A stretch of 34,540 bases of DNA from a virus (lineage: Duplodnaviria; Caudoviricetes). Position 1 is the first letter of the stretch; the number at the start of each line of letters is the position of its first letter. Positions 10,109-34,540 of the stretch are shown piece after piece. The position numbers and the translations under genes are program-made. The stretch covers positions 1 through 34,540 of the IMG/VR virus record IMGVR_UViG_3300032328_000724; one strand, written 5' to 3'. Under the pieces are notes generated by a model. The model was not told the DNA's origin, searched no databases, and worked only from the letters and a program-made list of their open reading frames with translations.

Positions 10109-10629
10109 TGCGGCACAGAAGCGTTACGCTAAAACCATTGTTCAAGTCGACGCTTTCCCCCGAAGCGGAAGCGGTCGCTATGGCAATCGCCAAGATCAAG
10201 CCATTGCCAATGAAGCAAACGTCGGCGGGGATAGTGATTCCAAACGAGCGAAGTATCAAGCAACGCAATTTCGCGTTTTGCCGAAATCCGGAGTGCGCGG
10301 AAGAGGGTTGCGAGTTTCGTTTCGAAGTCGAGCACACGTTAAACCCATGCCCTAAGTGTGGAGCTGATCGAGCCCCATTTGTCGGCATGCTTGCGAAAAT
10401 TCATTTGCTTGTTCGGGATAGAAAGGGTCCATTGGTTTGTGCCGGTGGTTTGCGTTACCGAATGGCATGCGATACCGAATACAAGCGGGGATCGATTTCG
10501 ACGACGGAAAACCATGAATTGGGGTCCGGCGCTCGAGAAGTCTGCAATTGTGTCGACTGCTTGGTTCAAGCGGACAAAATCAATGTTGGGGAGTATACTG
10601 GGTCGCGATTCATGGTTGAAGGAAAGTAG
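10108..10629 (+). CDS. Cys-rich (zinc-ribbon-like) protein
   Basis: CRNPEC, CPKC, CNCVDC; TAATG coupling to the previous gene. Confidence 0.6.
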   Translation: MRHRSVTLKPLFKSTLSPEAEAVAMAIAKIKPLPMKQTSAGIVIPNERSIKQRNFAFCRNPECAEEGCEFRFEVEHTLNPCPKCGADRAPFVGMLAKIHLLVRDRKGPLVCAGGLRYRMACDTEYKRGSISTTENHELGSGAREVCNCVDCLVQADKINVGEYTGSRFMVEGK

Positions 10630-14629: not shown

Positions 14630-15136
14630 ATGAAATTCCGATTAGACGGGGGAGTCATCGACGCGGATTTATCGGAGCTACAGAGGCTTTTGAGTTCCGT
14701 TACGCCATTATCTCGAGCCGTATTGGGTACCATTGTTTCGGATAAGTCGTTTCTCGAGGGAGTCGCCAAAGCATTGCAGGAAAAATACCTTCCTGAAACG
14801 CGGGTAACGTCGTCAGAAGCTTGGCAAATTTGGAAAGCGGTCGATGATGCTGCTACTGCCTACCAAGCACAGACGCGGGATTATGCAGAATTGGCGTTTT
14901 GGTTTCATATCAATCCGTACGAAGTATCGGAACGACAGCGAGTCGGACTACTAGCCAATTTGGGCATGCTCAAGGCACAGGATAGAATCAATCGCGGTGA
15001 CTACGACGCATTGGATCCAAAACAGGTTTATCAACTCTTCATGCTTGCGTATGAGGACAAAGAGCTTGCACAACGTAGGGCGACGGAATCCGCAAAACTA
15101 GCAATCGAACGGGAAGCGAAGAGGCAACGACAATGA
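14630..15136 (+). CDS. putative tail assembly chaperone (long, gpGT-like paralogue)
   Basis: SFLEGVAKALQE...TSSEAWQIW resembles GFLAGFAVALQE...TIDAAFRVY of 11169; ELAFWFHINPYEVS resembles gpT/gpE'-type extensions. Confidence 0.4.
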   Translation: MKFRLDGGVIDADLSELQRLLSSVTPLSRAVLGTIVSDKSFLEGVAKALQEKYLPETRVTSSEAWQIWKAVDDAATAYQAQTRDYAELAFWFHINPYEVSERQRVGLLANLGMLKAQDRINRGDYDALDPKQVYQLFMLAYEDKELAQRRATESAKLAIEREAKRQRQ

Positions 15137-18100: not shown

Positions 18101-21100
18101 GACGACTTTACCACTGGAAAGATGGTAAGCGAATTGCGGCACCTTCCTGGAACAACACAGAGCTTGTACCAGATCCGGAGGGCGGGAAAGACATACGGAT
18201 CAATAAGTACTTTGCCGACAATCCTGATCAGATTTTGGGGACTTTGAACCGAAGCGGAACAATGTACACGGGGGGCATGAAGAATGTCGAGCGTAACGAG
18301 TCGTACGACGACATGCTTCAAGCAGCAATCGATCGACTTCCATCCGACATCGTCCAAACGCAAGTAACGAAATCGGAAGAATCAGCGGTCATCACCGATG
18401 AGCTACTCCATGAGGGGCAACTTGTATCTCGAGACGGCAAGATTATGCAGTACTCAAACGGTGCTTTGAAACCGTTTTCCGTACCTGAGAAGAATGTCGA
18501 TCGAGTTACGTCGATGATTGCTTTGAAGGACAAAGCACGGGAAGTACTCCAGGCTCAGAGACGCGGGGAGGAACCAGACCGCACGGAGCTCAATAAGCTC
18601 TATGACGATTTCTACACGAAGTACGGACCATTGCACAAAACCGACAACCGAAAGGCAATGAAGGGGGATCCGGACGCAACATTCTTGCTATCTCTCGAGA
18701 AGTACAACTCGAGTGACAATACTGCGATCAAGGCGGATATGTTCAGCAAGAACACGCAAGTGCGCGGAGAGCGAGCTACGAAAGCAGACGGACCAGCGGA
18801 AGGGCTTGCAATCTCGCTCCATGAGACCGGACGATTGTCTCTCTCGAGAATCGCAACGTTGACGGGGCAAACGGAAGAGGAAGTAGGCAACGATCTACGA
18901 GAGAAAGGACTAGCATTCCAGGATCCAAACGGCACTTGGATGCCAGCATCTATGTACCTTTCGGGGAATACCAAACGTAAGCTTGCGGAAGCAAGGCATG
19001 CGGCAATTCTCGATCCGACATTCGAAGCGAACGTTAGAGCGCTCGAGCAAAACCAACCAGAAACAATTGCATCGGACGAAATCGGCGTGACGATGAGTTC
19101 CCCTTGGGTGCCAGTCGATCGACTCCAGGAGTTTGCGGCGCACGTTCTTGGAGCAGAGCTTGAAGACTTTCAAATGTCGCGGGACGGTGGCAGTTTCTCC
19201 ATGCGTATCCTTAACGACCACGTTGAATACGCTCAGTCGACTAGAGCCGTATGGGGCGACTTTGAACGGGTTATGAACGCGGCGGTCAACGGCAAGCCCG
19301 TTTTGGTACGCGACAGCGATGGAGCGATCGACAAAGACGCAACCGACGGGTATGCCGAGAAAATTGCGACACTCCAAGAGCAATTCCGGGAGTGGGCTTT
19401 CGACTCGGATCCGGAGCGAACCGAGGCAATGGCAGCGATCTACAACGAGACGCAAAACACGCACGTCGATACCAAGTACGATGGCAGTCACCAAACATTC
19501 CCAGGCATGGTAGACACGTTCAAGCTTCGAAAGATTCAACAGGATGCTGCTTGGCGAATTGTCCAGACCGGTCGCGGATTGCTTGCACACGAAGTAGGTA
19601 CCGGCAAGACGTCGACCATGGTTGCATCGGCAATGGAGCTGAGACGCATGGGGCTTTCCAAAAAGCCAGCGTTTGCGGTAAAGAACGCGAACATCGAACA
19701 ATTTGCGGAAGAGGCTCAGCAACTCTATCCCGATGCGAGAATCCTTTCGCTAGGAAAGAATTTCACGGCAGAGAACCGCCAAGAAATGTTGAACCGCATT
19801 GCAACAGGCGACTATGACATGGTCATTATGACGCATGAAAATATCGCCAAGATGCAGATGAAGCCCGACACGATCAAGCGAGTCATCGGGGAGGAAATCC
19901 AAGAACTAGAAGCAGCGTTAGTAATGGCTCAGAAGAAGCAAGCCGACATGGACGCGCTAACCGATTTGGAAGATGAGGGTAAGTACAAAAAGACCACCAA
20001 GAAAGAGCGAGAACGCAAAAGCAAAGCATTGCAGAACAATATCAAGAAGATCGAGAGCCGCAAAAAGGGGATCCAAGGCTATCTCGACAAAGTACTCCGA
20101 TCGGAAGACAAAGATGCGATCTACTTCGAGGATACTGGCATCGATCAATTGTTCGTTGATGAGGCACACAAGTTCAAGGGATTGCCGATCACTACCAAGC
20201 ACGACAAGGTCGGAAACATTCCCAAGCTTGCTTCGGCTAGTGCTCGAGCCCTGGACATGCTTGCACGGTGTCGCTACTTACAGGAGCAAAACGACGGTCG
20301 GGGAGTTGTGTTCGCGACGGGAACACCGATTACCAACAGCATGGCGGAATTGTACGTTATGCAGAAGTTCATCCAATCGGACGTGCTTCGCGAACGCGGT
20401 GTATCGCGGTTTGACGATTGGGCGGATACCTACGGCGAAATCACAAACGATTTTGAGTTCAAGCTGAAGGGGGAAGCGGTCGCAACACAACGGTTCAAGC
20501 GGTTTATGAACCTTCCAGAGCTTCGCAACATGGCATCGGAAATGATGGACATTAAGCGAGCTGTCGACATCCCGAATTTGGTTCGTCCGGACAAGCATGA
20601 ACACGCAATCGCGGTAGCTCGATCGAGTGATATGGATTCCGTGATGGAAGAGATAAAGGAACGGGCATTGGCATGCCGGGGCGGAAGGTCGGAAAGGTTA
20701 GTTCGCAGCGCTGCGGGTGAAATGATTCACGATAGCCCGTTGATTATCAACACCGATGCGAGAGCAGCATCGATCGATTTACGGCTCTACGATGCGAGTC
20801 TTCCGGACCATCCAGATTCCAAGGCGAATACAGCGATCAAGAATATCCTTGACGTCTACCACAAGAGCAAGGACAACGTTCAAGCTGTCTTTTCCGATAC
20901 GGGTATCCACGACACGAACAAGACAAATTTTTCGTTGTTCAAGGATATGAAAGACAAGCTAGTTGCGGCTGGAATACCACCGGGGGAAATAATCGACTTC
21001 TCGCAAGACATGAGCGACATCCAACGGGAAGACGCTCAAGCACGTCTAAGACGCGGAGACGCACGAATCGCATTTGGATCCACTGAGCGACTTGGGACCG

Positions 21101-22245
21101 GTACCAACATTCAGAAGAAACTAAAAGCAATTCACCATTTGGACATCCCGTACAATCCATCGGCGCTCGAGCAACGCGACGGTAGAGCCCATCGGCAGGG
21201 CAACATGCACAAAGATACGGGTGGTATCGACGTGTTCAAGTACGTCCAAGAGGGCTCAGCGGATTACCTTTCGTGGCAGATATTGGCGAACAAGTCGGGT
21301 TTCATCAATCAGTTTATGATCGGTGACAAGACGCTTCGAACCATGGAAGACATTTCCACCGACGATATGTCGCCTGAGCAGATGATTGCGATTGCAACCG
21401 GGGATCCTGGAATGATGCGCCAGATAGGACTACAGGACGAAGTTCGACGATTGCGACGTTCTAAGGGAAGAGCCGAAAACGAGCAGCGTACGATCAGTAA
21501 AGCGATTCGCGAAGCTCCAGCGAGAATCGAGAACTACTCTCGATCGATCAAACAAGCAACGCAAGACGCTGAGCACTTGCAACGGCAACCATTGTTTCAA
21601 TTCAAGACGCATACAGGTGCCGAGATTACTCACACGGAAGAGGGAACCAAGAAAGCTCTTGCCGATGCACGTCGGGACGCTCGAGCAGCGTATGAAGAGG
21701 CACAAGCGAAAGCGATCGAGAGGTACTCGGATAATACTTGGGCTCGAGAGGGGTATCAGGGAACGGGCAAGCTTGGAAGCTATAAAGGCTTTGAACTATC
21801 CGTGAGTCGAGACGGAAAGCACACGATCACAACACCATCGGATCGAAAAATTCCTTACGGTGGGTCGTTCGATTCGCTCGAGAAAGTTATCAACGCGATA
21901 CCGAAGCATCCGGTAACGCACACCGAGAACCTAGCCGCATTCCAACGCGACTTGGAACGATTGCGTAAGTCTGAGGGGCAACCATTCAAGAAAGCTCAAT
22001 TGCTCGAGGAACGCGAAAGGGAGCTTGCAACGCTTACGAGTCAACGCAATGACAAAAAAGCTTTGCGGGAGTCTCCAGACGCCAAAACGCTTCTCGTAAA
22101 CACCGAGGCAAGTCTGACGAGCAACCTCGAGCGAATGAAGTCACTTGGATTAAGAATTAGCACGGACGGGAACGGCTTGTATAATATACATGACGCCGGG
22201 GACACGATTATCGCCAAAATAAGGTACAAAGCAGATGGCAAGTAA
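15133..22245 (+). CDS. polyvalent protein: portal-like N-terminus (DUF935/Mu gp29-like) fused to DarB-like N6-adenine methyltransferase and SF2 (SNF2-like) helicase
   Basis: aa 1-400: IRQMLQDPEI, SQKWGWSGGEV, SILLGAYSPW, HKDAYGG portal-like pattern. MTase motifs FLEPAVGSG (17452) and NVPF (17653). Helicase AHEVGTGKT (19585), DEAH (20158), ATGTPITNS, GTGTNIQ, QRDGRAHRQGN. One uninterrupted frame. Confidence 0.8.
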   Translation: MNVFGQAIDKTLRAIGIRKTPSLPTKENPKPKAATSSYSGLKFFQQTRDLPLFTFDVIRQMLQDPEIRLGLAMRAAPIAAVEFAYIEGTDTEGKPKWIPGVEAKDPIVAEWVLRQLQNIWKSSLPGIVNSQKWGWSGGEVTIMLDEDTGLLEINELLARHSRDCRLLELPCGTPWGVQIDNVKDGASKVDLQYPYCFFINFRPEDGEKYSASILLGAYSPWADQWLNGGALDVRRLFMHKDAYGGMSIGYPTEDYNVEGQEKPVSAKFIADQIVEQAQAGNVITYPSGNDETGKPKWVIERAQVSANPQHILEYPKDLDAEKRHGLEIPDGAISNDGSGAWEGKSLPMAAFYAGLDTWVTQILCDLYKTLLPLAQLNFGENVSFKLRHKPLALQMLQQQGAKQSNGMQDSQGGDPYGGMGGDMGGGGGGMGGPPSMQQMANSPHAVIAAARKALGYNIHRLGNGPRHAPKGYTKDSPLVINGHEYVGGNFIPNDQIDHASDEQLKEIASGSRSSTPVEAKVSKPNRSIEPFENLNVGLRDKHSNMLQTNRTIKFKDGHSIKVQYDTHGKNSGYRVTHKSADGKTDYPERFSTIKEASDFGAEQLQRKRATVKSPSMQSRQLPDTNVGIEKQAPKYKPKRSLTEGNYRYKSKDFFSSGVKAKFKDNIAALQTLREIKLEGRSATPQEQETISKWVGWGQMPGLFDYTLPDGTKSVETEANYKKWSKERQTLKDLLGLEGYADARASTINGHYTHPSVVEAHWKMAEKLGFKGGRFLEPAVGSGYYLGFMPEHLAEKTHVTAVEMDSGSGAITQVLYPSADVHIKPFQEFKSPDNYFDLTATNVPFDANQKIYYPKHKISAQLHDYYFLRAMDTTKPGGLIMQLTSTGTMDKISDDVRNLLDENTEFVSAIRFPSDAHSENAGTEVVTDMLIMRKKNPAIPPVTDETPPEAMPKQPYEMNMTNEEIERQRNGESVETRYSPGFTGITTDSLGRLYHWKDGKRIAAPSWNNTELVPDPEGGKDIRINKYFADNPDQILGTLNRSGTMYTGGMKNVERNESYDDMLQAAIDRLPSDIVQTQVTKSEESAVITDELLHEGQLVSRDGKIMQYSNGALKPFSVPEKNVDRVTSMIALKDKAREVLQAQRRGEEPDRTELNKLYDDFYTKYGPLHKTDNRKAMKGDPDATFLLSLEKYNSSDNTAIKADMFSKNTQVRGERATKADGPAEGLAISLHETGRLSLSRIATLTGQTEEEVGNDLREKGLAFQDPNGTWMPASMYLSGNTKRKLAEARHAAILDPTFEANVRALEQNQPETIASDEIGVTMSSPWVPVDRLQEFAAHVLGAELEDFQMSRDGGSFSMRILNDHVEYAQSTRAVWGDFERVMNAAVNGKPVLVRDSDGAIDKDATDGYAEKIATLQEQFREWAFDSDPERTEAMAAIYNETQNTHVDTKYDGSHQTFPGMVDTFKLRKIQQDAAWRIVQTGRGLLAHEVGTGKTSTMVASAMELRRMGLSKKPAFAVKNANIEQFAEEAQQLYPDARILSLGKNFTAENRQEMLNRIATGDYDMVIMTHENIAKMQMKPDTIKRVIGEEIQELEAALVMAQKKQADMDALTDLEDEGKYKKTTKKERERKSKALQNNIKKIESRKKGIQGYLDKVLRSEDKDAIYFEDTGIDQLFVDEAHKFKGLPITTKHDKVGNIPKLASASARALDMLARCRYLQEQNDGRGVVFATGTPITNSMAELYVMQKFIQSDVLRERGVSRFDDWADTYGEITNDFEFKLKGEAVATQRFKRFMNLPELRNMASEMMDIKRAVDIPNLVRPDKHEHAIAVARSSDMDSVMEEIKERALACRGGRSERLVRSAAGEMIHDSPLIINTDARAASIDLRLYDASLPDHPDSKANTAIKNILDVYHKSKDNVQAVFSDTGIHDTNKTNFSLFKDMKDKLVAAGIPPGEIIDFSQDMSDIQREDAQARLRRGDARIAFGSTERLGTGTNIQKKLKAIHHLDIPYNPSALEQRDGRAHRQGNMHKDTGGIDVFKYVQEGSADYLSWQILANKSGFINQFMIGDKTLRTMEDISTDDMSPEQMIAIATGDPGMMRQIGLQDEVRRLRRSKGRAENEQRTISKAIREAPARIENYSRSIKQATQDAEHLQRQPLFQFKTHTGAEITHTEEGTKKALADARRDARAAYEEAQAKAIERYSDNTWAREGYQGTGKLGSYKGFELSVSRDGKHTITTPSDRKIPYGGSFDSLEKVINAIPKHPVTHTENLAAFQRDLERLRKSEGQPFKKAQLLEERERELATLTSQRNDKKALRESPDAKTLLVNTEASLTSNLERMKSLGLRISTDGNGLYNIHDAGDTIIAKIRYKADGK

Positions 22246-22689: not shown

Positions 22690-22752
22690 TACATTGTGGA
22701 CACCAGCGATTTGCTTGGTGAGTGGAATGTTACCCTTCAGGAGAATACAGTA

Positions 22753-23130
22753 ATGGCTAAGGCAACGGAGTACTGGAAAGCACCTAAGCTTTCCAATGGC
22801 AAGTATCCAACGATGGACTTCTATATTGCCAAGTGTGAGCAATTAAAACTACGGTGCCTCAATGGTGGATTCGTAGAACGTACGAACGGGCAGTTTGTAT
22901 CGGGTTTGATGGGTGTATCTGCAATCGAAGCCGGCGAAATCGCGGCATCACACTTCGAAGAGCCTTTGGTTGTTCTTTCCTATGGAGCACAACATTTGCG
23001 TAACGCTCAAGAGAATACGCGGTTGGCAGCGGTATGGGAGTCGGCTCGAGACTCACAACCGAGAGACTGTCATTGTGCTCGAGGTGGGAATCCTGCTTAT
23101 TGCGAATGCAAGACATGGGAGACACGCTAA
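22753..23130 (+). CDS. hypothetical protein with C-terminal Cys cluster
   Basis: ATG 22753 with AGGAG RBS; ends CHCARGGNPAYCEC. Confidence 0.65.
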   Translation: MAKATEYWKAPKLSNGKYPTMDFYIAKCEQLKLRCLNGGFVERTNGQFVSGLMGVSAIEAGEIAASHFEEPLVVLSYGAQHLRNAQENTRLAAVWESARDSQPRDCHCARGGNPAYCECKTWETR

Positions 23131-24569: not shown

Positions 24570-26445
24570 CCCATGGATGAAACAAACGATGACGGAATCA
24601 AGCGATCCTAAAATCCTGGAAGCGGTTCGTAGTGCGATCGAAGCCAACGAGCCACTATTTAACGAGTTGATGGATTCCGATGAGCTGGAGGCATTTGTCG
24701 CAAATAAAGCCGGTGAAGTCGAGACCATGGTCGCGGACTATATCAAAGTCGGGGCTACGGAAGATGAAGCGATGCAACTTGCTCTCGAGGGATTGCTACC
24801 CGACGACGAAGCCGACGGGATCGATACCGATGACGTGTCGATCGAGGGGGAAGACGTCGCAAGAATGTCGTTAAGTCGCAGAATGGCGCTTCAGGTCGGT
24901 ACCACGGTCAACAAAGGCGGGGTGAACTACGTTCTAAACGAGAATCACCGATGGACGCGGCAAGATGCAGGGGGCCAAGCAGCGCCACAACAGCGACCGA
25001 AGTTGTCCCAAGACGAAATGAAAGCTTCGATGGCGGGGCAAAAGTACGAAAGCCCACAGGCAAAGCAAAACAAGGTGATCGTCGACAAGTTGAACAATCC
25101 GAAGCAAAAAGCACCATCGGAAAAACAAGCCGCATTGAAAGAGCAAAACGCATTTCATGCGAAGCTGGACGCAATGGATAAGAGCGAAGTCGATGCGATG
25201 GCTACCAAGCTTGGCATCGATCCTGCAAAGTGGCCGAGCCGGTGGAATCTTCAAGAACAGATCAGAAAGGCGAAACCAAGACAGCCATCCGAATCATCGG
25301 ACTACGAGTCGCGGGTTCAAGCAGCGATCAAAGAGGGGATGAGCCGGGGGGACGCTCAAGGGTACGTTGAAGCCCAGGATATGCAGAAGAGCAAGCCGAA
25401 CCAACCAAACAAGCCGGCAAACTCACCAATTGACACTCCCCCGCCACCGGTGCACAAGTCGGAGATATTTGGCGGTCATCACAATCCGAGGGTTGACGAA
25501 GATCCAAACCATGATGGGGTGACAGATCGGGCTCGAGTCGGGGTTGCGGCTTTCGATGTTCCCCCTCCCCCAAAGAAGATACCGAGGATTCCAGGGTTGA
25601 CCGGAGTCGCCAAGAAATCGGAAGACCACTTTGCCCAGGCTTTCGAAGCGGATCCGGAAAAGCTGATCAACGATGCGGTCATTATGTTTACCGCGATGGC
25701 GGAACCTGGATCCCCTGCAACGTTCGAAACCGACGCTTGCAAGAATCTGAGCCCATATTGGAAGTCTCTCGAGCTGAATGAAAACCTCGAGCAACGGTCG
25801 AAGAATCGGGCAACGCTCAACACGTCGCTACACCAAACAGCGAACGCGATTGCGAAGAACGCTTTCGTCAAGCACCTGGACACACTTCCGGAGGGTTCGG
25901 AAATCCTGGTTACAGTCGGTGGTTGTGGAGCTGGAAAGGGCTTCGCGCTCAAGGGTGTTCCCCAAGCTTTGGAGCTGAAAAAACGCGCGGCAGTTGTGTG
26001 GGATTCAGCCGGGGACCAAAACGCAACGGAGAATCCTTGGATTCTCCAGGAGGCACGAAAACGCGGTCACAAAGTTTCGTACGTCTACGTTCATAGCGAT
26101 CCGAAAGTATCGTGGGCGGATCCAGGTCGCGGTGTGGTCAAGCGAGCTGGAGACCCTAATGACGGTCGAATGGTCGATGCCATGGTGTTTGCTGACTCCT
26201 ACGCTTTGGGAGCGAAAAACCATGCAGAGTTCGCCAAGCGCCATGCAACCGATTCAGACGTCACTTGCGTCTTTTTGAAAAACGGCAATCCACCGGTGTT
26301 ATCCGGACAGATGCCACCAGAAGCACTAACGATCGACCGGTATGAGCTTGCGAAGTTCGCGGTCGATACGATCAACAATTCGCCGGACATTCCCCAACAC
26401 GTAAGAGAGGGAGCATTGGCCGGCACAAAGATTTGGGGCGACTAA
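24562..26445 (+). CDS. multidomain protein: TnpV-like N-terminus, HeH-like motif, C-terminal zeta-toxin-like P-loop kinase
   Basis: Walker A GGCGAGKG (25918), VVWDSAG, RGHKVSYVYVHSDP, KRAG...GRMV lid typical of zeta/PezT-like kinases. Confidence 0.7.
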   Translation: MPSPWMKQTMTESSDPKILEAVRSAIEANEPLFNELMDSDELEAFVANKAGEVETMVADYIKVGATEDEAMQLALEGLLPDDEADGIDTDDVSIEGEDVARMSLSRRMALQVGTTVNKGGVNYVLNENHRWTRQDAGGQAAPQQRPKLSQDEMKASMAGQKYESPQAKQNKVIVDKLNNPKQKAPSEKQAALKEQNAFHAKLDAMDKSEVDAMATKLGIDPAKWPSRWNLQEQIRKAKPRQPSESSDYESRVQAAIKEGMSRGDAQGYVEAQDMQKSKPNQPNKPANSPIDTPPPPVHKSEIFGGHHNPRVDEDPNHDGVTDRARVGVAAFDVPPPPKKIPRIPGLTGVAKKSEDHFAQAFEADPEKLINDAVIMFTAMAEPGSPATFETDACKNLSPYWKSLELNENLEQRSKNRATLNTSLHQTANAIAKNAFVKHLDTLPEGSEILVTVGGCGAGKGFALKGVPQALELKKRAAVVWDSAGDQNATENPWILQEARKRGHKVSYVYVHSDPKVSWADPGRGVVKRAGDPNDGRMVDAMVFADSYALGAKNHAEFAKRHATDSDVTCVFLKNGNPPVLSGQMPPEALTIDRYELAKFAVDTINNSPDIPQHVREGALAGTKIWGD

Positions 26446-26822
26446 TGGACACTCTAGGGCTAGCAAGAAAAGACGATAAGCAAACGAGCCACGATGGCGC
26501 GGAGCACATTAAACCACGATTGAATGACAGGAAGTTGGAATTTATGAGTGGGTTGAGGGCTCTCGGAGGGAGAGCAACAGCCAAGGAAGTTGCGAGTAAC
26601 GTCCATCCAGGCGAATTTGCGATATTCGACTCAATCAGGAAACGAGCGATTGATTGTGTTCGACTTGGTTGGGTAAGGGAAGTGGAACCGAGGGAATGCA
26701 AGGTATCGGGCCGAAAGTGTACCGTGTATGAGATTGTCGAAATCGCACGCTGCGAGGCTTGCGGTGGCGAAATGGTCAATGGAGTCTGTAAACGAGAACT
26801 AGAAGAGGAAAGCAATGGATAA
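26445..26822 (+). CDS. winged-helix DNA-binding protein with Cys-rich C-terminus
   Basis: ARKDDKQTSHDGA (phage ARxxDxxTS motif), ATAKEVA helix, RECKVSGR wing, CEACGG. Start at 26445 by TAATG coupling. Confidence 0.65.
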   Translation: MDTLGLARKDDKQTSHDGAEHIKPRLNDRKLEFMSGLRALGGRATAKEVASNVHPGEFAIFDSIRKRAIDCVRLGWVREVEPRECKVSGRKCTVYEIVEIARCEACGGEMVNGVCKRELEEESNG

Positions 26823-27165
26823 CGCACAACCGCAAGCAGAGATTGGAACCATGGATACATGGTGGACCGATGAATCAGCGAGACAAGAAGCCATGGGCGA
26901 CTTTGTTGTCGAGAATGGACTAGGTGTCCAGGATATGCCGGAAAACCCTTACGAGGATGATTCAGCGGTACCAGCGGAAGAAACCAGCGAAGAGACTCCA
27001 GACATGACGGGGGGCAACGATGAAGTTACAGAGACCGACGTTGAAATCGAGGGCGATGCTGAGGCAGCCGAGGCACAGAAGCAAAAAGCGGCAAAGGACA
27101 AGCAAGACAAAGCCAAGGCCGACATGCTTGGAGAAGAGCCCGACGTTGAGCCCCAAGGCAATTGA
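26815..27165 (+). CDS. highly acidic hypothetical protein
   Basis: About 34 of 116 residues are D/E; GAGG RBS. Confidence 0.65.
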   Translation: MDNAQPQAEIGTMDTWWTDESARQEAMGDFVVENGLGVQDMPENPYEDDSAVPAEETSEETPDMTGGNDEVTETDVEIEGDAEAAEAQKQKAAKDKQDKAKADMLGEEPDVEPQGN

Positions 27166-27231
27166 GTGGGCTTACTGGGAAAATGAGAAGATGATGTTTC
27201 CCGAATCTATGTGGGAAGAATTGGAACCAAA

Positions 27232-27552
27232 ATGACAACGTTACGCGAATTTACAAGGATCAATTACGTCGATGATCTAAACAAACGCATGTTGCAGGCA
27301 ATGGTAGTCGAACATGCGAACCGGTTTACGCTCATTCAGAAATCACAATTTGAAAGCGTAACAGTAAAAAGCATTTCCGACACGTTTCATCGGGTCGAGA
27401 AGCGAACCGGCATAATCAACGTTGTCGTTCCCAAAGAGCGATTCGTAACCTACGAGGAAAGCGATTTAGAGTGGATGTTGTACTTCGGCATGGCGATTCC
27501 ATGGAGTTACGTTTCTCAGTTCGATTCAACCGTCAGAGCGAACCACAAATAA
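27232..27552 (+). CDS. hypothetical protein
   Basis: ATG 27232; fills the gap before the MuF gene. Confidence 0.6.
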   Translation: MTTLREFTRINYVDDLNKRMLQAMVVEHANRFTLIQKSQFESVTVKSISDTFHRVEKRTGIINVVVPKERFVTYEESDLEWMLYFGMAIPWSYVSQFDSTVRANHK

Positions 27553-27556
27553 AACC

Positions 27557-29284
27557 ATGATTGAGCCCGACGACATCTACAATAAGACTTTATTCGGCGC
27601 GGAAGCGGTTTTCGCTGAAGTTCGTGACGACATCATCCGTACGGTATCGAGTTCTTACCGTACTCTTCCGATACCGAGTGTTCTAAATCGAATCCGTTCG
27701 CTTTGGGCATCGTCATCGGTGGTTTTGGTTGACCACTTGGCCGATACTAATTTAGCTGCTTGGGTCGGTGGAATTGACTCAGTTTCGAAGCAGTTTCCAG
27801 CATGGCTATGGCAACACTTCACGCATCAGCTATGGGGAGGGAAGCAACCAGAGCCGTTTGAGCTGAATTTGTTTCCACACTTCCGAGACAATGACTCGCT
27901 CAAGACGCTTCGGTTGCCGATTATCGACAAAGCAGTCTCGAATTTGATTCGTCGCAATGTGATGACGCGACCGCAATGGGACTTGGCTCGAGAGGAAGAG
28001 CAGAAGAAAGCGTTTTTCATTACTGCCGATCTTGGCGAAAAGGCGATCGAGACTATCCGCGACGTGCTTGTCGAGGATGTTTCAGCCGGTCAAACGATCC
28101 GAGCTTTCCAGCAAAAGCTAGCCGAGTCGATCGAGGGTTCGGCATTGCATCCGGCACACGTTGAAAACATTTACCGGACCAACGTACAAGCAGCGTATCG
28201 CGATGGCAAAGAGACCATGGCATCGCATCCTATCGTGGCGGGATTGTTTCCCTATCAACGGTACACTTGCAATCACGATGCACGTACACGGACGACGCAC
28301 AGAGCCCTAGAGCGTTTGGGGCTCAATGGTACCGGGATCTATCGGCGCGACGATCCTTTTTGGGACTTCTATACTCCCCCATGGGGCTACCAATGCCGAT
28401 GCGGAACCATGCTCTTGACGATCGAGCAAGCCGCACGGTTAGGGGTACGCGAAGCGATGGACTGGTTACGTTCGGGACGTCCACCGGCACAACCGGAGCA
28501 CAGGCTCGAGCATATTCCATTCCCACCGGAACCAGGGTTTGGGTATCGCGGTATCGTTCGAATGTCGTCAGTCGATCGAGCTGGACACAAACACAAAGGA
28601 AAAGGCCAAGGCGGGGGGCAGTTTACCAGCGACGGAGACGGGGCGCAGAAAACGCCGGCTCAAACTTCCAAAACGGGGCAAAAGCCGACAGGAAAGGCAA
28701 AAGCGGTAAAAGCACCTGCGAAGGTTGCCGAGTTGCATCCAGCGGTTTTGGCGAAAGCAGCGGAGCAAGGCGACTCGCCGGAACATCGGGAAGCCCGTAC
28801 GGTCGTCGCCAAGCACTATTTCGCGAATATGGCAGTTGCGTACGACCACAAGACCGGGACCATGGTACCGCTAAAGCCTAGCACGCAGGAGGGCATGTTA
28901 GACGGGATCGATCTGAGCAAGCCCGTTACACTTGGTCCCCCTCCAGCGATTCCGCCACCAAGAAAGATGGTTCAGTGGCAAGCGGAAGGGGGCTATCGCG
29001 GTTCGTACTTTAGTGTTGAAGGGGTGAAGCCACAGGAGTTAGGGATTTATGAACAAGCAACAGCTTGGACGCTTCCAGGTCAGCCGGTTTTACCCAGGAG
29101 GCAAAAAGCCTACGACACCAAAAAAGCCAAGCTCGATCGAATCAGTTATTTGCAGAGCGTAACGGCACCTACGATCGATACATGGTCGGTACCGGGAAAG
29201 CACGTAGCAGTAGCGGGGGGCGGTCCACAATGGTACGTTCCCGTAGCTGCTCACCCACAAGTTAGGATTCCAGTTACAAAATGA
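27557..29284 (+). CDS. MuF (SPP1 gp7-like) head morphogenesis protein with C-terminal Ntox46/Tse6-like NAD(P)+ glycohydrolase toxin
   Basis: MuF motifs IYRTNVQAAY, DARTRTTH, DDPFW...PPWGYQCRC. Toxin motifs GIDLSKPV, VQWQ, GSYF, PQELGI, SVTAPTIDTWS, GGGPQ. Confidence 0.82.
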   Translation: MIEPDDIYNKTLFGAEAVFAEVRDDIIRTVSSSYRTLPIPSVLNRIRSLWASSSVVLVDHLADTNLAAWVGGIDSVSKQFPAWLWQHFTHQLWGGKQPEPFELNLFPHFRDNDSLKTLRLPIIDKAVSNLIRRNVMTRPQWDLAREEEQKKAFFITADLGEKAIETIRDVLVEDVSAGQTIRAFQQKLAESIEGSALHPAHVENIYRTNVQAAYRDGKETMASHPIVAGLFPYQRYTCNHDARTRTTHRALERLGLNGTGIYRRDDPFWDFYTPPWGYQCRCGTMLLTIEQAARLGVREAMDWLRSGRPPAQPEHRLEHIPFPPEPGFGYRGIVRMSSVDRAGHKHKGKGQGGGQFTSDGDGAQKTPAQTSKTGQKPTGKAKAVKAPAKVAELHPAVLAKAAEQGDSPEHREARTVVAKHYFANMAVAYDHKTGTMVPLKPSTQEGMLDGIDLSKPVTLGPPPAIPPPRKMVQWQAEGGYRGSYFSVEGVKPQELGIYEQATAWTLPGQPVLPRRQKAYDTKKAKLDRISYLQSVTAPTIDTWSVPGKHVAVAGGGPQWYVPVAAHPQVRIPVTK

Positions 29285-29517
29285 GCAAGATACAGGAAGC
29301 GATCCAACACACGGAAGCCTATTTGAAGTTGTCGCAGGATCCGGCAATGGTCGCAGTACTCGCACAACTCAAGCAAGCTCTTGATGGCAAGCCGCAACCA
29401 TTGTGTTCCATCGGTCGCATTGTGACGTCCAACTACGTTCCAGCTCCAGTAGCCGAGCTTGAGGATTGGGTCGATCTAGTTTTGGAAGCATGGAAGGAAA
29501 TCAAGGCACGGAAATGA
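29281..29517 (+). CDS. putative immunity protein (Tsi6-like)
   Basis: 78 aa, all-helical, overlaps the toxin stop; AVLAQL and SIGRIVTSNY resemble Tsi6 motifs. Confidence 0.6.
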   Translation: MSKIQEAIQHTEAYLKLSQDPAMVAVLAQLKQALDGKPQPLCSIGRIVTSNYVPAPVAELEDWVDLVLEAWKEIKARK

Positions 29518-30806
29518 TTGGTTCATTTAATTGGCTCGTAGACGGTAAGCCTGTCTATTTCGACCAAACAAGCCAACAGCAATTCATCGACTGCCCAAGG
29601 GGATGCAACAGCGGTCGAGCTGTTTTTGTCATGCGAGAAGAGGATGCAGACGCAATCGGAGAAGACGCGGTAAGCTTCGAGGCGACGTTTATCGATGAGG
29701 ATGCTAAAGAGGGCGATGAGCCGCAAGTATTCACTTGGCAGGGGTACTATCTATGTTCGCGGTTGAAAGAGCTGGAATCCGGTAATGTGGTAGTGGAGTT
29801 TCGCGACAAGCGAGTTTTGCTCGAGCGTGGCACGGTGAACACCGAGTACAACACGATCAACCTAGTCGCGTACGAGCCGGGGGGAAGCACGACAACTTAT
29901 AACTTCTATGTAGATGAGTTCTGCCGAGCTTCGAACACTCCCCACACCTTTGTGCAAATTGTCGAAGCTATCTTCGATGAGACTGAGCTAGAATATCCTG
30001 GTTGTCCGTCGGTCGCAGTTTCTCCCATAACGAACATTTCCGGACGTGGCAATTGTGCGACCATCTTGCAAGGCTTGCTTGCTTCTGTCGGGCTCGACAT
30101 GATATTCGATCCTTTCGCCGGTACCGTCAGCATTGTCCGATTGACGGATTCGCACGACGTTAGCGCACGTGAAGAGGCAACAGCCGACGGGCGAATCGTC
30201 TATCCAGGGCAGTTTAACGACGATGATGCAACGAAGCAGCATATTGGGAAGGCAAAAATACTTCCATCTGACTATTTCCCTGTTCAATTCGTGGAAGAGG
30301 ATGAAGCGACGTTTGGGGATGGTGGCTCTTCGATCAACATTCGAGACTACCAACTAGCCGACGACATCACACGTACCGTAAAGACCGCACGGTTAACGGA
30401 AATCGAAGCAGCTTTGGACGCATGGTACCAGTACCAAGACGAAACATTCACCGAGTACTTATGGGGCATTGTGGAGCAGGTACCGGGAGCACGAATCTAC
30501 CATACGACGTGGATGCTCAAACACGAAGAGAACGGAACGCACACAAAGCTACGCAACTACGTTCCCCCGATACCATGGGCAGCGAGAACCGAGTTCCGCC
30601 GAAAGGGACCACGACGGGGGAAAACTCGAGAAGTGGTTGACGGGACGCTCAAATTGGTCGAGTACTACAAGCAGAGCAATACGGGCTCTTACACGGCAAC
30701 AAACAAAGACATAAAAGCAGTCACAATAGGGACCAACATCGCGATAGACAAGACTGTCGCGTTTTGGGAAGGTGAAAGAACGTATCTAGCGCTGGAGGTA
30801 TGTTAA
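29514..30806 (+). CDS. putative tail-tip/baseplate hub protein
   Basis: ATGA overlap at 29514; VEFRDKR...YN, TFVQIVEAIF, ATILQGLLASVGLDMIFDP pattern typical of hub proteins. Confidence 0.5.
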   Translation: MIGSFNWLVDGKPVYFDQTSQQQFIDCPRGCNSGRAVFVMREEDADAIGEDAVSFEATFIDEDAKEGDEPQVFTWQGYYLCSRLKELESGNVVVEFRDKRVLLERGTVNTEYNTINLVAYEPGGSTTTYNFYVDEFCRASNTPHTFVQIVEAIFDETELEYPGCPSVAVSPITNISGRGNCATILQGLLASVGLDMIFDPFAGTVSIVRLTDSHDVSAREEATADGRIVYPGQFNDDDATKQHIGKAKILPSDYFPVQFVEEDEATFGDGGSSINIRDYQLADDITRTVKTARLTEIEAALDAWYQYQDETFTEYLWGIVEQVPGARIYHTTWMLKHEENGTHTKLRNYVPPIPWAARTEFRRKGPRRGKTREVVDGTLKLVEYYKQSNTGSYTATNKDIKAVTIGTNIAIDKTVAFWEGERTYLALEVC

Positions 30807-31814
30807 ATGGGAGGACTTGGATATTGCTGTTGTGACGAAGAAAGTTGCGACATTGCACAAGACGACTTCAATCGAGCTAATTCAACCGACCTTGGATCGG
30901 GATGGACAGCAGCGACTCGAGACAATTTCTCGATCGTAAGCAATCAAGCTGTTGCCGATACAACTGACGCGGCGATATTCGATACGCTTCATCCGGATCC
31001 AGACCCATCGGGAATAGCGATCGTGAAGACGATCGACGAAGTATTTGACAGCGGGGCGACGTATCGCGTTATTTGTAACGCGGTCGATGCGAGTAATTAT
31101 CACTGGTGTGACTTTACCCGAAACGCTGGAGACACGTCGGTATTAGCCATCGGAAAGCGTACCAGCGGGGTAGATACTACGATCAAAAGCGCCACGATTG
31201 TTGGCTTGAGCAATTTATCTCGAGATTTGCAAGTTCGTATTGCTCCAGGGGAGCTATGCGGAATGGTCTCAAACGCGACTCTTTCGTTTGTTGGAAAAGA
31301 TGCAACGCCATTCCCGACGGGCTATCGTATCGGAATGAAAGCGAGTGTAGCGGGGCTCAAGTTCGACGACATCCGTTTCGTCCAGCATAACGAAACGTTC
31401 GAGACATGTCCCGTGTGTATCTGTAAATGCGATACGTCATATATTCCACCGGTGCTAAACGCTCGTTTCCAGGGGTTTGGTCCGAGAATGGAAGCATTGA
31501 GTTGCGATACTCAGTTAGTCTACGATCGAGTAGATAGCACCTGGAAAGGGGACGCTTGCGGATGCTTTACCGGTAGAGTGCGATGGACGTGTCCAGCAGT
31601 AGACAACGATCCGCTTGAGGCAATCTTGCTCCTATTAGACAGCGGTTGTACTAACTCCGATGGTTTTCACGGTGGGTCGAGACTTCCGTCAACTGCTACG
31701 TGCAATCCAATCTCCATACTTTATGGACCGTACACTGTCGCGGGATCCGACCTTTCGTGTGGTTGCGGTCCAATTTTTTCCGCAGGATCATACACAGTTA
31801 CGATAACGGCATGA
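30807..31814 (+). CDS. cysteine-rich putative virion/receptor-binding protein with concanavalin-like beta-sandwich
   Basis: 19 Cys in 335 aa (YCCC, CPVCICKC, CGC twice); DDFNRAN...LGSGW and GYRIGM...FDDI lectin-fold motifs. Confidence 0.55.
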   Translation: MGGLGYCCCDEESCDIAQDDFNRANSTDLGSGWTAATRDNFSIVSNQAVADTTDAAIFDTLHPDPDPSGIAIVKTIDEVFDSGATYRVICNAVDASNYHWCDFTRNAGDTSVLAIGKRTSGVDTTIKSATIVGLSNLSRDLQVRIAPGELCGMVSNATLSFVGKDATPFPTGYRIGMKASVAGLKFDDIRFVQHNETFETCPVCICKCDTSYIPPVLNARFQGFGPRMEALSCDTQLVYDRVDSTWKGDACGCFTGRVRWTCPAVDNDPLEAILLLLDSGCTNSDGFHGGSRLPSTATCNPISILYGPYTVAGSDLSCGCGPIFSAGSYTVTITA

Positions 31815-32980
31815 GCACTTGTAAGTTAAAACGTGTGTCCCCTCCATGCGATTGCCCTATCGCTGGTTTCTGCAAACGTCACAAGGTAAACAAGGGAGAA
31901 CACTGGAGAAAGCTTTGCCAAACCGATGAAAAGTATCGGCAAGCATGGGACGACAATACAGGACCGGGGCAACTTGTCCCAGGTATCGACTACTTTTCGT
32001 TAACACCAGTCGATTACGGCGCGTACCATAAGCATTGGCGTGAATGGCACACAATCGCGAATCCAAGTTGGGTTTGGCTATTGGATTGGATCGAGCGTAT
32101 TCCCGGTTGCGTGACGTGCAAGGATGACATGCGACGATGGATCGAAGTAAATAGACCACGATTCGACGACTGGAAAGCGTACAGTTGTGAAGGGCATAAC
32201 CACGTCAATCGCAAGCTTCTGAAGCCAGAGCTAACAGTTGAGGAAGCGAAAGAACGATGGAAAAACTCTTCATACGTGTATCTTCCAAACGCCGATCGGC
32301 AACAACCCTCGATCGAGTGTGTCGTCGCGGTGACATCGATCGGCCCCAAGCATTTCGAAAAGCAGTTGGAAGCGGTCGCGACATGGAAGCGATTAGGGCT
32401 CACTGTCGTATCGGTAAACACGTCCGAGGAAGTCGATAAGCTTCGGGAAGTATTCACCCAGGTCGACGAATGGATAGCTAACGACGTGCTTGGTACGTTC
32501 TACGCAAAGCCGACGCAACCGATCAATCGATTGCTGGACGTCGCGATTGCAAAACAAAAACCGGTACTACTGATCAACTCCGACATTCGCATCATTGGGG
32601 ACCAGTCGACCATTGTCGACATCGTCAAAGCCGGGAAATCAGCGATAGGCATACGGCATAACTTCAAGGACTCCCCAACCGATGCAATCCAAGAGGTTTG
32701 GGGGCTTGATGCTTTTCTGGTTTGGCCTGATCAAGTCGAGAACCTACCGGAAGTGGTTTTTTCGGTTGGTCGCCCAATGTGGGACTATTGGCTAGGGTGG
32801 ATCCTTGGGAGAGACAAGCGTGAAACCGAATGGATTGGGCAACCTTATTTTTTCCATTTGGCTCACCCAGTTGCCTGGACGAAGGAAGATTGTCAGCGTG
32901 GTCATAAACACTTCGTTAGCAAGTTTGGACCGTGCAACTGGATGGCATGGAGACAGCTTTCGCCGTGTTGGAAGGGCTAG
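31811..32980 (+). CDS. fusion: Cys-rich N-terminus + Erv1/ALR-like sulfhydryl oxidase + GT-A glycosyltransferase-like domain
   Basis: WREWH, PGCVTCKDD (CxxC), CEGHNHVNRKLLKP...W; then VAVTSI, INSDI, GLDAF, GRPMWDYW. Start at ATG 31811 (ATGA overlap). Confidence 0.72.
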   Translation: MSTCKLKRVSPPCDCPIAGFCKRHKVNKGEHWRKLCQTDEKYRQAWDDNTGPGQLVPGIDYFSLTPVDYGAYHKHWREWHTIANPSWVWLLDWIERIPGCVTCKDDMRRWIEVNRPRFDDWKAYSCEGHNHVNRKLLKPELTVEEAKERWKNSSYVYLPNADRQQPSIECVVAVTSIGPKHFEKQLEAVATWKRLGLTVVSVNTSEEVDKLREVFTQVDEWIANDVLGTFYAKPTQPINRLLDVAIAKQKPVLLINSDIRIIGDQSTIVDIVKAGKSAIGIRHNFKDSPTDAIQEVWGLDAFLVWPDQVENLPEVVFSVGRPMWDYWLGWILGRDKRETEWIGQPYFFHLAHPVAWTKEDCQRGHKHFVSKFGPCNWMAWRQLSPCWKG

Positions 32981-33001
32981 CACTAGGATACTTGTAAAAA
33001 A

Positions 33002-33031
33002 GTAGTGACAGCGTGTTGACAACGTCACTAC
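33002..33031. promoter_or_regulatory. palindromic operator GTAGTGAC-N14-GTCACTAC flanking the -35 box
   Basis: Perfect 8-bp inverted repeat read directly from the sequence. Confidence 0.65.
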
Positions 33032-33044
33032 GGCAGCGTACATT
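33016..33044 (+). promoter_or_regulatory. sigma70-type promoter of the early operon
   Basis: TTGACA-N17-TACATT with an A-tract upstream. Confidence 0.75.
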
Positions 33045-33082
33045 TCCACCGGTTCAGTTTCTTTACACGAACGGGGGATAGT

Positions 33083-33376
33083 ATGACAACGGGCAATCCA
33101 AAGGCAAACGAAGAGGAAACAAATGCGACTAGCGCTTTGGCAGCGACAATTGAAGCCTTCTGTGTCGACGCAATGCGTGTGATGGTGTCTACTGGTCGCT
33201 TAGACGAAAATCAGTCTCGACAATGCCTAGCTTCGGCAATGGTGTACGTCATCTGCAAATTAGTAGCTCCAGGTACACCAGATGGGCAAGTCGGGGTTCA
33301 ACTGCTTTACGATGCAATGACTACGACCTTCAATCGAAAGATTGATGAATTGCGAGGGTCGAATGAGCGTAATTAA
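33083..33376 (+). CDS. hypothetical protein
   Basis: GGGGG RBS; first gene after the promoter. Confidence 0.65.
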   Translation: MTTGNPKANEEETNATSALAATIEAFCVDAMRVMVSTGRLDENQSRQCLASAMVYVICKLVAPGTPDGQVGVQLLYDAMTTTFNRKIDELRGSNERN

Positions 33377-33539
33377 GAAGCAGCGACAGCTAGGTCGCGT
33401 AGGTACTGCGACCTGGAACAAGCTCAAGAAAGCGGCGAAGCTTGCCGAGCTTTCGTTTACCCAGTGGGCAGTTAGCCGGCTGTTGGTAGCGGCGGAAACC
33501 GAAGCACTAGAGCGAAAGGAAGCCAAGAGCGATGAATGA
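33363..33539 (+). CDS. ribbon-helix-helix DNA-binding protein
   Basis: RQLGRVGTATWNKLKKAAKLAELSFTQWA; similar to 24381..24569. Start at ATG 33363 after GAGGG. Confidence 0.7.
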   Translation: MSVIKKQRQLGRVGTATWNKLKKAAKLAELSFTQWAVSRLLVAAETEALERKEAKSDE

Positions 33540-34383
33540 TGAAGAATACTTCAATGATCACTCGAGGGTTTCTAATTCTGGTCTCAGCTTGCTCAAAGAG
33601 TCTCCTGAGTTGTATTACAAGATGATAACCGGGGAGTACGTTCGACCGGTTACGAAAGCCATGGAGTTTGGGACGCTAGTCCATTGCTTAGTTCTCGAGT
33701 CAAGTAAGTTTTCGGAAAGATATTACATTCTTCCGGAAGGCATCGATCGACGTACCAACGCGGGTAGGGCAGCGTACGACGAAGCTTTGTATGTTGCCGG
33801 CAAGAAGACGGTCATTACACGCGAAACGATTCAGGCAGCGTTAGCTTGTGCGAAGCGAATCAGATCAAACGAGACGATCGGCAAGACGCTTGAGACTTCA
33901 GACGTCGAAATCGAGCGAAAAACGTACTACCGTTTGTTCGGTCTCGAGTTTCGGTCGAAGCTTGATTGGGTCGATTCAAGGCGAAAGCTTATCATCGATA
34001 TCAAGACATGCCGTAACGCTAGCCCGAAAGCCTTTGCGATCCATGCTGCGAAGCTTGGCTATCATCGGCAAGCGGCATTATACTGCGAGGGGGCTTCGCA
34101 GGTTTGGGGAGGGCAATTTCGGTTTGTAATGGTATGCGTTTGTACAACGTATCCGTACGAAACGTCGGTTGTCGAGTGGGACGACTACGGACTTGCTAGG
34201 GGCATGCAAGATGCAGCAGCATTGTGCGAGCAACTAAAGATCCGCACGTTGACCGACAATTGGAAACCAGACTATTCGAAGGGACCGGCACCTACGAAAA
34301 TTACCGTACCAAAATGGTTGGAACGTCCGGAAATGGAAGATTTGTTTTTCAAGGACTTATTAGAAGGGCAAGACAATGAGTAA
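33532..34383 (+). CDS. RecE/exonuclease VIII-like PD-(D/E)XK nuclease (DUF3799-like)
   Basis: SNSGL, FGTLVHCLVLE, RSKLDW, IIDIKT, YHRQAALY motifs. Confidence 0.88.
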   Translation: MNDEEYFNDHSRVSNSGLSLLKESPELYYKMITGEYVRPVTKAMEFGTLVHCLVLESSKFSERYYILPEGIDRRTNAGRAAYDEALYVAGKKTVITRETIQAALACAKRIRSNETIGKTLETSDVEIERKTYYRLFGLEFRSKLDWVDSRRKLIIDIKTCRNASPKAFAIHAAKLGYHRQAALYCEGASQVWGGQFRFVMVCVCTTYPYETSVVEWDDYGLARGMQDAAALCEQLKIRTLTDNWKPDYSKGPAPTKITVPKWLERPEMEDLFFKDLLEGQDNE

Positions 34384-34540
34384 CGAATTGAGTACCACAG
34401 CGAACCAGGGTACCGGGGGTGCACTTGCTAACGCGGTCGCTTCTCGAGAAATCGCTGAGATTCAAGGGGCGATGACGATGGCGAAACGCTTTCCGAGGAA
34501 CGAATCGGAAGCGTTAGACAAGATCATTGCAGCATGCAAG
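34376..34540 (+). CDS. 3'-truncated putative ssDNA-annealing/recombination partner of the RecE-like nuclease
   Basis: Not in the ORF track; reads MSNELSTT...REIAEIQGAMTMAKRFPRNESEALDKIIAACK to the window end; position after the exonuclease. Confidence 0.55.
   Translation, partial: MSNELSTTANQGTGGALANAVASREIAEIQGAMTMAKRFPRNESEALDKIIAACK

Follow-up and report, generated by a model that had tools for sequence, protein, structure and literature searches.

Sulfhydryl oxidases of the Erv family have been described as present in all eukaryotes and as conserved among the large DNA viruses that infect them, and the viral enzymes are credited with making the disulfides of virion proteins within a reducing cytoplasm (PMC3509050). 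Here we describe a locus in a 34.5-kb record of an uncultured tailed phage (IMG/VR record IMGVR_UViG_3300032328_000724, positions 1 to 34,540; this whole stretch is referred to below as the window), in which a predicted Erv/ALR domain is fused to a domain resembling GT-A glycosyltransferases, in a gene that overlaps the gene for a Cys-rich protein. The described enzyme closest to it is pB119L of African swine fever virus (ASFV; structure 3gwl), which is the best match of the phage domain both by sequence profile and by Erv fold, and which shares with it a minimal helical bundle and a single pair of Cys residues next to flavin adenine dinucleotide (FAD). The departures from the pB119L type are several: the enzyme described here belongs to a bacterial virus, a tailed phage, its helices 1 and 2 are joined by a loop that is shorter by about 12 residues, the Erv domain in the window is fused to a GT-A domain and to an arm with four Cys residues, most of its relatives have a CxC motif, and no thioredoxin-like carrier was seen among the scanned open reading frames (ORFs) of the window. 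Vaccinia E10R is another compact Erv oxidase of the nucleocytoplasmic large DNA viruses, and the cytoplasmic relay of the poxvirus type consists of an Erv oxidase, an adaptor and a thioredoxin-like carrier.

Erv enzymes with additional fused domains are represented by mimivirus R596 and baculovirus Ac92/P33, and R596 uses a shuttle disulfide on a mobile segment (PMC3509050). The protein in the window resembles these in that its Erv domain is joined to domain-sized extras and in that a candidate shuttle, C13-x-C15, lies on an arm modeled with low confidence; it differs in that the extra domain has a recognisable enzyme fold, GT-A. QSOX also combines Erv with another functional module in one chain, although that module is thioredoxin-like, handing over electrons from the substrate, and the enzyme is eukaryotic and secreted. 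A third point of comparison is the maturation of sublancin, encoded by the SPbeta prophage, which uses the S-glycosyltransferase SunS and the thiol-disulfide oxidoreductases BdbA and BdbB. The likeness here is a prophage-borne GT-A-type glycosyltransferase together with disulfide enzymes and a product with an odd number of Cys residues; however, the sublancin substrate is a small secreted peptide, the functions are in separate genes, and the disulfide enzymes, which belong to the thioredoxin and DsbB types, work outside the cytoplasm. Mycobacteriophages encode glycosyltransferases that glycosylate virion proteins, and virus-encoded glycosyltransferases of giant viruses reportedly act on virion proteins as well. 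These share with the window the presence of GT-A enzymes encoded beside structural genes, and we know of no thiol oxidase or link to a Cys-rich substrate described for either. A search of one open-access library turned up no publication that describes a tailed-phage Erv enzyme, which agrees with a preliminary description of this locus, made from its sequence, that knew of no characterised phage system of this kind. In the passages covered, PMC10598087 discusses Erv in giant viruses only.

The gene pair and the domains of the fusion protein

The fusion gene (31811-32980, +) encodes 389 residues, a length equal to that of a relative in the databases (P0003). Its ATG at 31811 lies within GGCATGAGC and forms a 4-base ATGA overlap with the TGA of the upstream gene (30807-31814, +), which codes for the Cys-rich partner of 335 residues and 19 Cys; the coordinates, the ATGA overlap and the Cys count given in the preliminary description are all reproduced by ORF translation. 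The partner is 5.7% Cys, compared with a window mean of 1.1% (126 Cys in the 11401 residues of 37 tabulated ORFs). Hydrophobic signals and membrane segments are absent from both proteins, in which hydropathy over 19 residues peaks at about 1.0, so both should fold in the cytoplasm. There is no PHROGs family for the fusion protein, and a tblastn search of 50,697 deposited phage records returned no match for the whole protein and none for the Erv domain alone, even at E<=10.

Residues 66-152 of the fusion protein (32006-32266, +) almost certainly adopt the Erv/ALR sulfhydryl-oxidase fold. The Pfam family Evr1_Alr (PF04777) matches residues 90-151 (E 4.1e-7; 30.7 bits against a curated cut-off of 27.6), and a six-frame search with the same family scores 34.2 bits in the window and matches none of 14 control genomes. 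When the protein is compared with PDB sequences by phmmer, the 11 best chains are all ALR/Erv1 (E 1.5e-4 to 0.025), with GCVTC in register with PCEEC and GHNHVNRKLLKP with LHNEVNRKLGKP, such that both CxxC and HNxVN match. A profile built on 19 distinct Erv copies from phages and prophages gives 15 PDB matches at E<=0.01, all of them oxidases of the Erv/ALR family, and the best of these is ASFV pB119L (3gwl; E 5.2e-11) with nearly the whole core covered. The active site is C100-V-T-C103 (32108-32119, +), which aligns to the CEEC of ALR, and the motifs HWREWH, GCVTC and GHNHVNRKLLKP occupy residues 75-80, 99-103 and 128-139, respectively. The W-x3-H of helix 1 and the H-N-x-V-N of helix 4 are flavin-site residues of Erv enzymes, and in the window copy W76, H80, H129, N130, V132 and N133 are all present and aligned. 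Across the 19 copies W76, C103 and V132 are invariant (19/19), and H80 and H129 are conserved in 17 and 18, respectively.

An AlphaFold model of the fusion protein has a mean predicted local distance difference test (pLDDT) score of 72.6, and the five Erv helices (residues 66-81, 87-95, 101-113, 118-136 and 143-150) are at 77-90. The closest structure by VIA-align is 3gwl_B (Z 11.3, root-mean-square deviation (rmsd) 2.1 over 87 residues, 25% identity), followed by yeast Erv1 (4e0i; Z 10.7) and Erv2 (1jr8; Z 10.5); helical bundles may reach such Z values by chance, but here sequence and fold agree. The WxxxH, CxxC and HNxVN signature that the preliminary description had read as Erv-like is thus borne out by the Pfam score above cut-off, by the PDB alignment and by a predicted helical bundle that fits pB119L with a Z of 11.3. 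A homodimer with a shuttle disulfide between its subunits is a further trait of Erv enzymes, although not of every viral one. From its fold and motifs the domain is predicted to bind FAD and to oxidise thiols.

The wider Erv family is large. An exhaustive profile search returned 4576 cluster representatives at E<=0.001, of which 1008 also pass E<=1e-10, counts that may take in eukaryotic and giant-virus members. Among the best 150 of these, 122 are no longer than 200 residues, i.e. stand-alone Erv proteins, and 11 have a C-terminal GT-A domain; a simple custom pattern assigns CxC to 114 and CxxC to 23 of them, with 13 unassigned. One protein recovered with the profile, P0140 (2656 residues), is matched at profile positions 59-86 in 17 separate stretches and looks like a repeat protein, not an oxidase.

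Preceding the Erv domain is an arm (residues 1-67) with pLDDT below 50, which in this low-confidence part of the model is probably flexible. It contains a four-Cys motif, C13-x-C15-x5-C21-x14-C36 (31847-31918, +), that includes CDCPIAGFC at residues 13-21, and because the identical spacing is invariant in relatives that have no Erv domain (L024, L027, L026 and L033) the C13-C36 segment appears to be a small module of its own. The shuttles of cellular Erv enzymes are C-x-C, C-x-x-C or C-x4-C motifs on mobile segments (PMC3509050), and a shuttle role for C13-x-C15 is possible since cellular shuttles use such motifs; a zinc or other metal knuckle with four Cys ligands is equally possible. The suggestion that CDCPIAGFC is a shuttle disulfide is therefore strengthened in one respect, the motif being part of a recurring four-Cys module on a low-confidence arm, and weakened in another, that module being just as compatible with a zinc knuckle.

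Residues 166-389 (32306-32977, +) very probably have a GT-A glycosyltransferase fold, as judged by structure matches of the model. The top match by VIA-align is the fucosyltransferase WrtF (9omh_A; Z 13.0, rmsd 3.4, 191 residues), an enzyme whose abstract describes it as metal-independent, and is followed by chondroitin/heparosan synthases at Z 12.9 (9q8z_B) and 12.8 (8viw_A). Other GT-A matches are AvpGT (Z 11.9), TarS (11.7), TarP (11.6) and SpsA (11.5), the chains scored among these including 5tze_C at 11.7 and 1h7l_A at 11.5; somewhat lower values (Z 9.8-11.7) are obtained with nucleotidyltransferases, which share this fold class. Among the viral structures of BFVD there are 146 matches at E<=0.001, and within the best 50 those that are named are almost all viral glycosyltransferases or GT-A-type proteins. 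The short segments INSDI (255-259), GLDAF (298-302) and WDYW (324-327), which had led to the earlier assignment of a GT-A-like domain, all lie inside this region, and the structure matches support that assignment. An alignment of 27 such domains has invariant W, N-S-D, R, G-x-D, G, W-D and H-x-x-H positions. A DxD-like motif, N256-S257-D258-I259-R260 (32576-32590, +), follows the fourth strand, the place of DxD in GT-A enzymes; its N and D are invariant in all 27 domains, 24 of which have E at the last position.

In sequence searches, Pfam has no family for the GT-A domain of the window or for any of the 27 aligned domains, NCBIfam has none for the GT-A domain, and a GT-A profile found no glycosyltransferase among PDB sequences; two weak phosphatase matches of that profile in the same set are regarded as chance. 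None of 134 homologues of the domain has a functional name. By sequence, the fusion protein belongs to no named glycosyltransferase family.

The Cys-rich partner and its linkage to the enzyme gene

The partner begins with a Cys cluster, C7-C8-C9-x4-C14 (30825-30848, +), that is invariant in an alignment of relatives; this is followed by a predicted ConA-like beta-sandwich of the lectin or carbohydrate-binding-module (CBM) type at residues ~14-200 (30846-31406, +), drawn from a low-confidence model, and by a Cys-dense C-terminal region with 12 Cys in residues 201-320 (31407-31811, +; pLDDT 20-30). When seven relatives are aligned, 15 of the 19 Cys positions are invariant, compared with 68 of the 316 other residues (Fisher p 5e-7). 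Sequence leads are weak, and consist of phrog_2804, "virion structural protein" (E 0.0034), and DUF7257 (E 0.14). The beta-sandwich matches the receptor-binding domain of mycobacteriophage TM4 gp23 (VIA-align Z 14.1), CBM66 (Z 13.8), a Douge baseplate chain (Z 13.4), the CBM of phage J-1 Dit (Z 12.1) and many lectins, and an independent model of the partner in the Atlas is also of the ConA-like class (3keto-disac_hyd/Laminin_G type). The ConA-like domain is a lead only, because confidence in the partner model is low overall, and on these modeled similarities a receptor-binding or baseplate role is plausible. The partner gene follows a MuF-like head gene and is ~18 kb from the tape-measure-like gene. 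In prophage L043 two genes separate the tape measure from the partner, after which comes the enzyme. The earlier view of the partner as a tail-tip protein is weakly supported: the weak PHROG match and the ConA-like N-terminal domain of the low-confidence model favor it, and in the window the gene adjoins the MuF-like head gene and not tail genes.

Partners diverge considerably. A word-based homologue search with the partner found one close relative only, an iterative hidden Markov model search for its family among the fetched loci stopped at 11 ORFs, and the partners of different loci are mostly not alignable. True homologues of the 335-residue partner (27-34% identity) are present upstream of ~35%-identical enzymes in seven loci. 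In two loci an FGE-sulfatase-type domain (Pfam E 1e-33 and 3e-30) is inserted into the partner (L027:3466-5325 and L033:4040-5977) and separates its N-terminal Cys cluster from its Cys-rich C-terminal part. The number of Cys residues in the partner is odd in 20 of 24 loci (binomial p 0.0015), a count that depends on the choice of start codon and on related sequences, and that would suit a set of pairs with one Cys left over.

Conservation of the gene pair was surveyed, as the preliminary description had proposed, in 39 related loci from a scan of viral contigs and five from a set with one genome per species, which together with the window give 40 distinct enzyme/neighbour pairs. In 36 of these a + strand ORF of at least 150 residues ends just upstream of the enzyme. 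This upstream ORF is Cys-rich (9 to 35 Cys, making up at least 4% of residues) in 30 of 36 loci, compared with 13 of 247 other ORFs of that minimum size from the same loci (Fisher p 2e-24), and has CC within its first 45 residues in 32 of 36, compared with 2 of 247 (Fisher p 2e-35); since the loci are related to one another these counts describe a conserved arrangement and not independent events. The typical partner start is MGxxGxCCCxxC. The stop-to-start distance is no more than 14 bases in 17 of 24 pairs, seven of which have the 4-base overlap. Three more loci, in two planctomycete metagenome-assembled genomes (MAGs), have an equal gene order, with 20, 25 and 30 Cys in the upstream ORFs.

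The six loci below the threshold (L004, L011, L031, L035, L036 and L038) are varied. The neighbour in L004 has no Cys at all; in L011 a split enzyme gene leaves its Erv half as the ORF upstream; L035 and L036 have arrays of stand-alone 220-residue GT-A paralogues; the L031 neighbour has 9 Cys and falls under the percentage threshold at 3.6%; and in L038 the longest qualifying ORF is not the 362-residue, 24-Cys ORF of that locus. The neighbour in L019 is borderline (233 residues, 9 Cys, ~3.9%).

The enzymes themselves vary around the GT-A domain. The Erv domain is N-terminal to it in most, and C-terminal only in L030 and L034. In L026 and L031 a GT2 domain accompanies GT-A, L033 and L004 have weak methyltransferase matches, L024 and L027 have GT-A joined to the four-Cys module, and P0028 (376 residues) has GT-A with a C-terminal ferredoxin-like part (a precomputed match to Fer4_19, PF06902). 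Further combinations are P0005, with Erv and a different C-terminal domain, and P0007, with GT-A and a different N-terminus. Because the architecture varies around a constant GT-A, the partner is tied to GT-A at least as strongly as to Erv. Two longer proteins of 610-615 residues (L009:5800-7632 and L007:4861-6708) start with a zinc-ribbon-like segment (CxCPHCx4C...CxC), and between Erv and GT-A they contain an additional 210-residue domain with an FVDADC motif. By eye this middle domain and the C-terminal domain of P0005 are sugar transferase-like, but Pfam finds nothing in them and we make no claim.

Genomic context and probable host

The contig is from a tailed phage, with an estimated completeness of 75%, and all of its long ORFs are on the + strand. 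Genes for a large terminase, a portal-like protein, a lambda-D-like decoration protein, a major-capsid-like protein, a neck protein and a tape-measure-like protein are present in the window. In the midst of the structural genes is one for a DarB-like protein of 2370 residues (15133-22245, +; phrog_10089, E 0, 1285 bits), which has methyltransferase and SNF2/helicase parts and only 6 Cys. The MuF-like minor head protein (575 residues; 27557-29284, +; Pfam E 7e-11, phrog_220 E 1e-31) also has a C-terminal Ntox46 'bacterial toxin 46' domain (E 2e-11), and it looks like head-packaged cargo of the polymorphic-toxin type. There are three additional small ORFs rich in Cys, which could encode further substrates or metal proteins: 10108-10629 (+; 173 residues, 10 Cys), 22696-23130 (+; 144 residues, 6 Cys) and 26433-26822 (+; 129 residues, 6 Cys, with a match to phrog_1123).

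The partner and fusion genes are the last two before the recombination module, which starts after a 100-base gap with a gene for a RecE/exonuclease VIII-like PDDEXK protein (33532-34383, +; DUF3799 E 7e-29, phrog_412 E 2e-56) and also includes an ORF at 34376-34540 (+). The best promoter-like site of the region is in that gap (33016-33044, 10/12); a scan of 27000-34540 for promoters and terminators gave no excess over shuffled sequences (4 vs 5.5 and 7 vs 7.5, respectively).

The phage host is probably a planctomycete. All five of the loci found in genomes are in Planctomycetaceae or Pirellula MAGs, and the GT-A domain of the window clusters with those MAG copies in a tree (support 99/98). One of them (L042) is on a 126-kb contig in which the enzyme is the last gene before a tyrosine integrase, followed by a protein kinase gene of the host; in another (L041) there is a serine recombinase nearby. 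One MAG has seven matches to the Erv profile.

Possible function of the gene pair

On the evidence of the two folds, of intact Erv motifs, of the ATGA overlap and of a synteny with a Cys-rich gene that is conserved in many related phage and prophage loci, we lean slightly towards a role in which the Erv-GT-A protein oxidises the Cys residues of its lectin-like upstream partner in the host cytoplasm and possibly also glycosylates it. Late in infection, the partner and enzyme genes would be translated together, and the Erv domain with its FAD would draw electrons from Cys pairs of the nascent partner via C100 and C103, either directly or perhaps through the C13/C15 arm, with the electrons going to oxygen or another acceptor. 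The GT-A domain on the same chain would transfer a sugar to the partner, which would be both the substrate and a virion protein, probably a receptor-binding one.

A number of observations weigh against this interpretation. The CxxC spacing of the active site is found in only three of the 19 Erv copies, that in the window included, and the other 16 have CxC, with the second, flavin-side Cys fixed; the L037 and L038 copies are without H80 and H129-N130, and together these departures indicate that the family is not uniformly canonical. In the window and its near relatives an Arg, R260, is at the acidic position of the DxD-like motif. No Pfam family of thioredoxin- or glutaredoxin-like carriers is present in the 35 scanned ORFs of the window; with the contig at 75% completeness, such a gene might be among the sequence that is missing, or the host might supply the carrier. 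The partner model has a mean pLDDT of 41.6, with the beta-sandwich at 50-76 and the Cys-rich half at 20-30; residues 191-335 are unmodeled, and the model yields no geometry for the Cys residues. A clade with no Erv domain (L019, L031 and L024-L032; support 99/98) retains Cys-rich partners, and Erv is therefore not required for such a partner. Among sampled relatives of MAG G001 (201 sampled from its phylum and 151 from its family, with only part of the candidates scored) the Erv profile matches G001 only, and because matches are so confined the Erv gene appears not to be a host core gene and instead to travel with prophages. The relatedness of the loci likewise limits what their number contributes, and two motifs of the partner, CCCxxxxC and CxxCxCxC, resemble metal sites as well.

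These last motifs, C7-C8-C9-x4-C14 and C201-x2-C204-x-C206-x-C208 in the window, raise the alternative that the partner Cys residues hold zinc or iron-sulfur centres, with the Erv-GT protein acting elsewhere or controlling their redox state. The C-x-C-x5-C-x14-C module of the enzyme and the ferredoxin-like fusion in P0028 are consistent with metal or redox modules traveling with the family; however, a metal-binding protein would have no need of a dedicated flavin thiol oxidase, Erv is linked to a protein of 15-35 Cys across many loci, and 12 Cys over 120 residues exceed the usual small metal site, so that we regard this explanation as rather doubtful. It also seems unlikely that GT-A is the core enzyme, with glycosylation of the partner, perhaps on Cys sulfur, as the main function and Erv as an interchangeable accessory redox module. 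The constancy of GT-A, with GT2, methyltransferase-like, four-Cys or ferredoxin-like parts in place of Erv, and the persistence of Cys-rich partners in the clade that has no Erv would both fit, as would odd Cys counts in 20 of 24 loci if these reflect pairs and a leftover Cys, but that parity hangs on uncertain start codons and related sequences, the domain has no glycosyltransferase family membership by sequence, and the Arg at the acidic DxD-like position of the window speaks against it. A combination of the two activities can be envisaged in which Erv closes all of the Cys pairs and GT-A coats the leftover N-terminal CC(C) Cys with sugar, on a receptor-binding protein of Planctomycetes phages. 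We consider this quite unlikely; if true, the arrangement would parallel glycocin maturation on the scale of a virion and would be the first case of a bacterial virus that encodes a disulfide pathway, and the Cys-x-Cys flavin-proximal site in most Erv members would be unprecedented.

Two further explanations dispense with oxidation of the partner. The fusion gene is last before the recombination module in the window and last before the integrase in L042, which is the usual place for a moron, and its top fold matches include glycosyltransferases for O-antigen and teichoic acid, such that the protein could be an enzyme of lysogenic conversion or host-surface modification at the end of the late operon, with no functional tie to its neighbour. 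This is very unlikely in view of the start/stop overlap, the conservation of the neighbour next to enzymes that are only 25-50% identical, the lack of a membrane segment in the protein, and the fusion to a thiol oxidase, which has no obvious use in glycan synthesis. That the Erv domain is instead a catalytically silent binding or scaffold module might be read from the loss of flavin-site residues in L037 and L038 and from the CxC of most relatives, but it is highly improbable for a copy that, as in the window, retains every tested motif including CxxC, in a family whose flavin-proximal Cys is kept in 19 of 19 copies.

If the Erv domain is active as an oxidase of the partner, these phages would make disulfide-rich virion proteins in the reducing cytoplasm of a bacterium by means of an oxidase of their own, like poxviruses and ASFV, and that oxidase would share a polypeptide with a probable glycosyltransferase. 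The Erv family is large, and the CxC of most of its closest members raises a question of Erv chemistry that can be tested. The locus is further relevant to where the Erv fold arose, and it is a source of compact oxidases with which disulfides might be formed in the bacterial cytoplasm.

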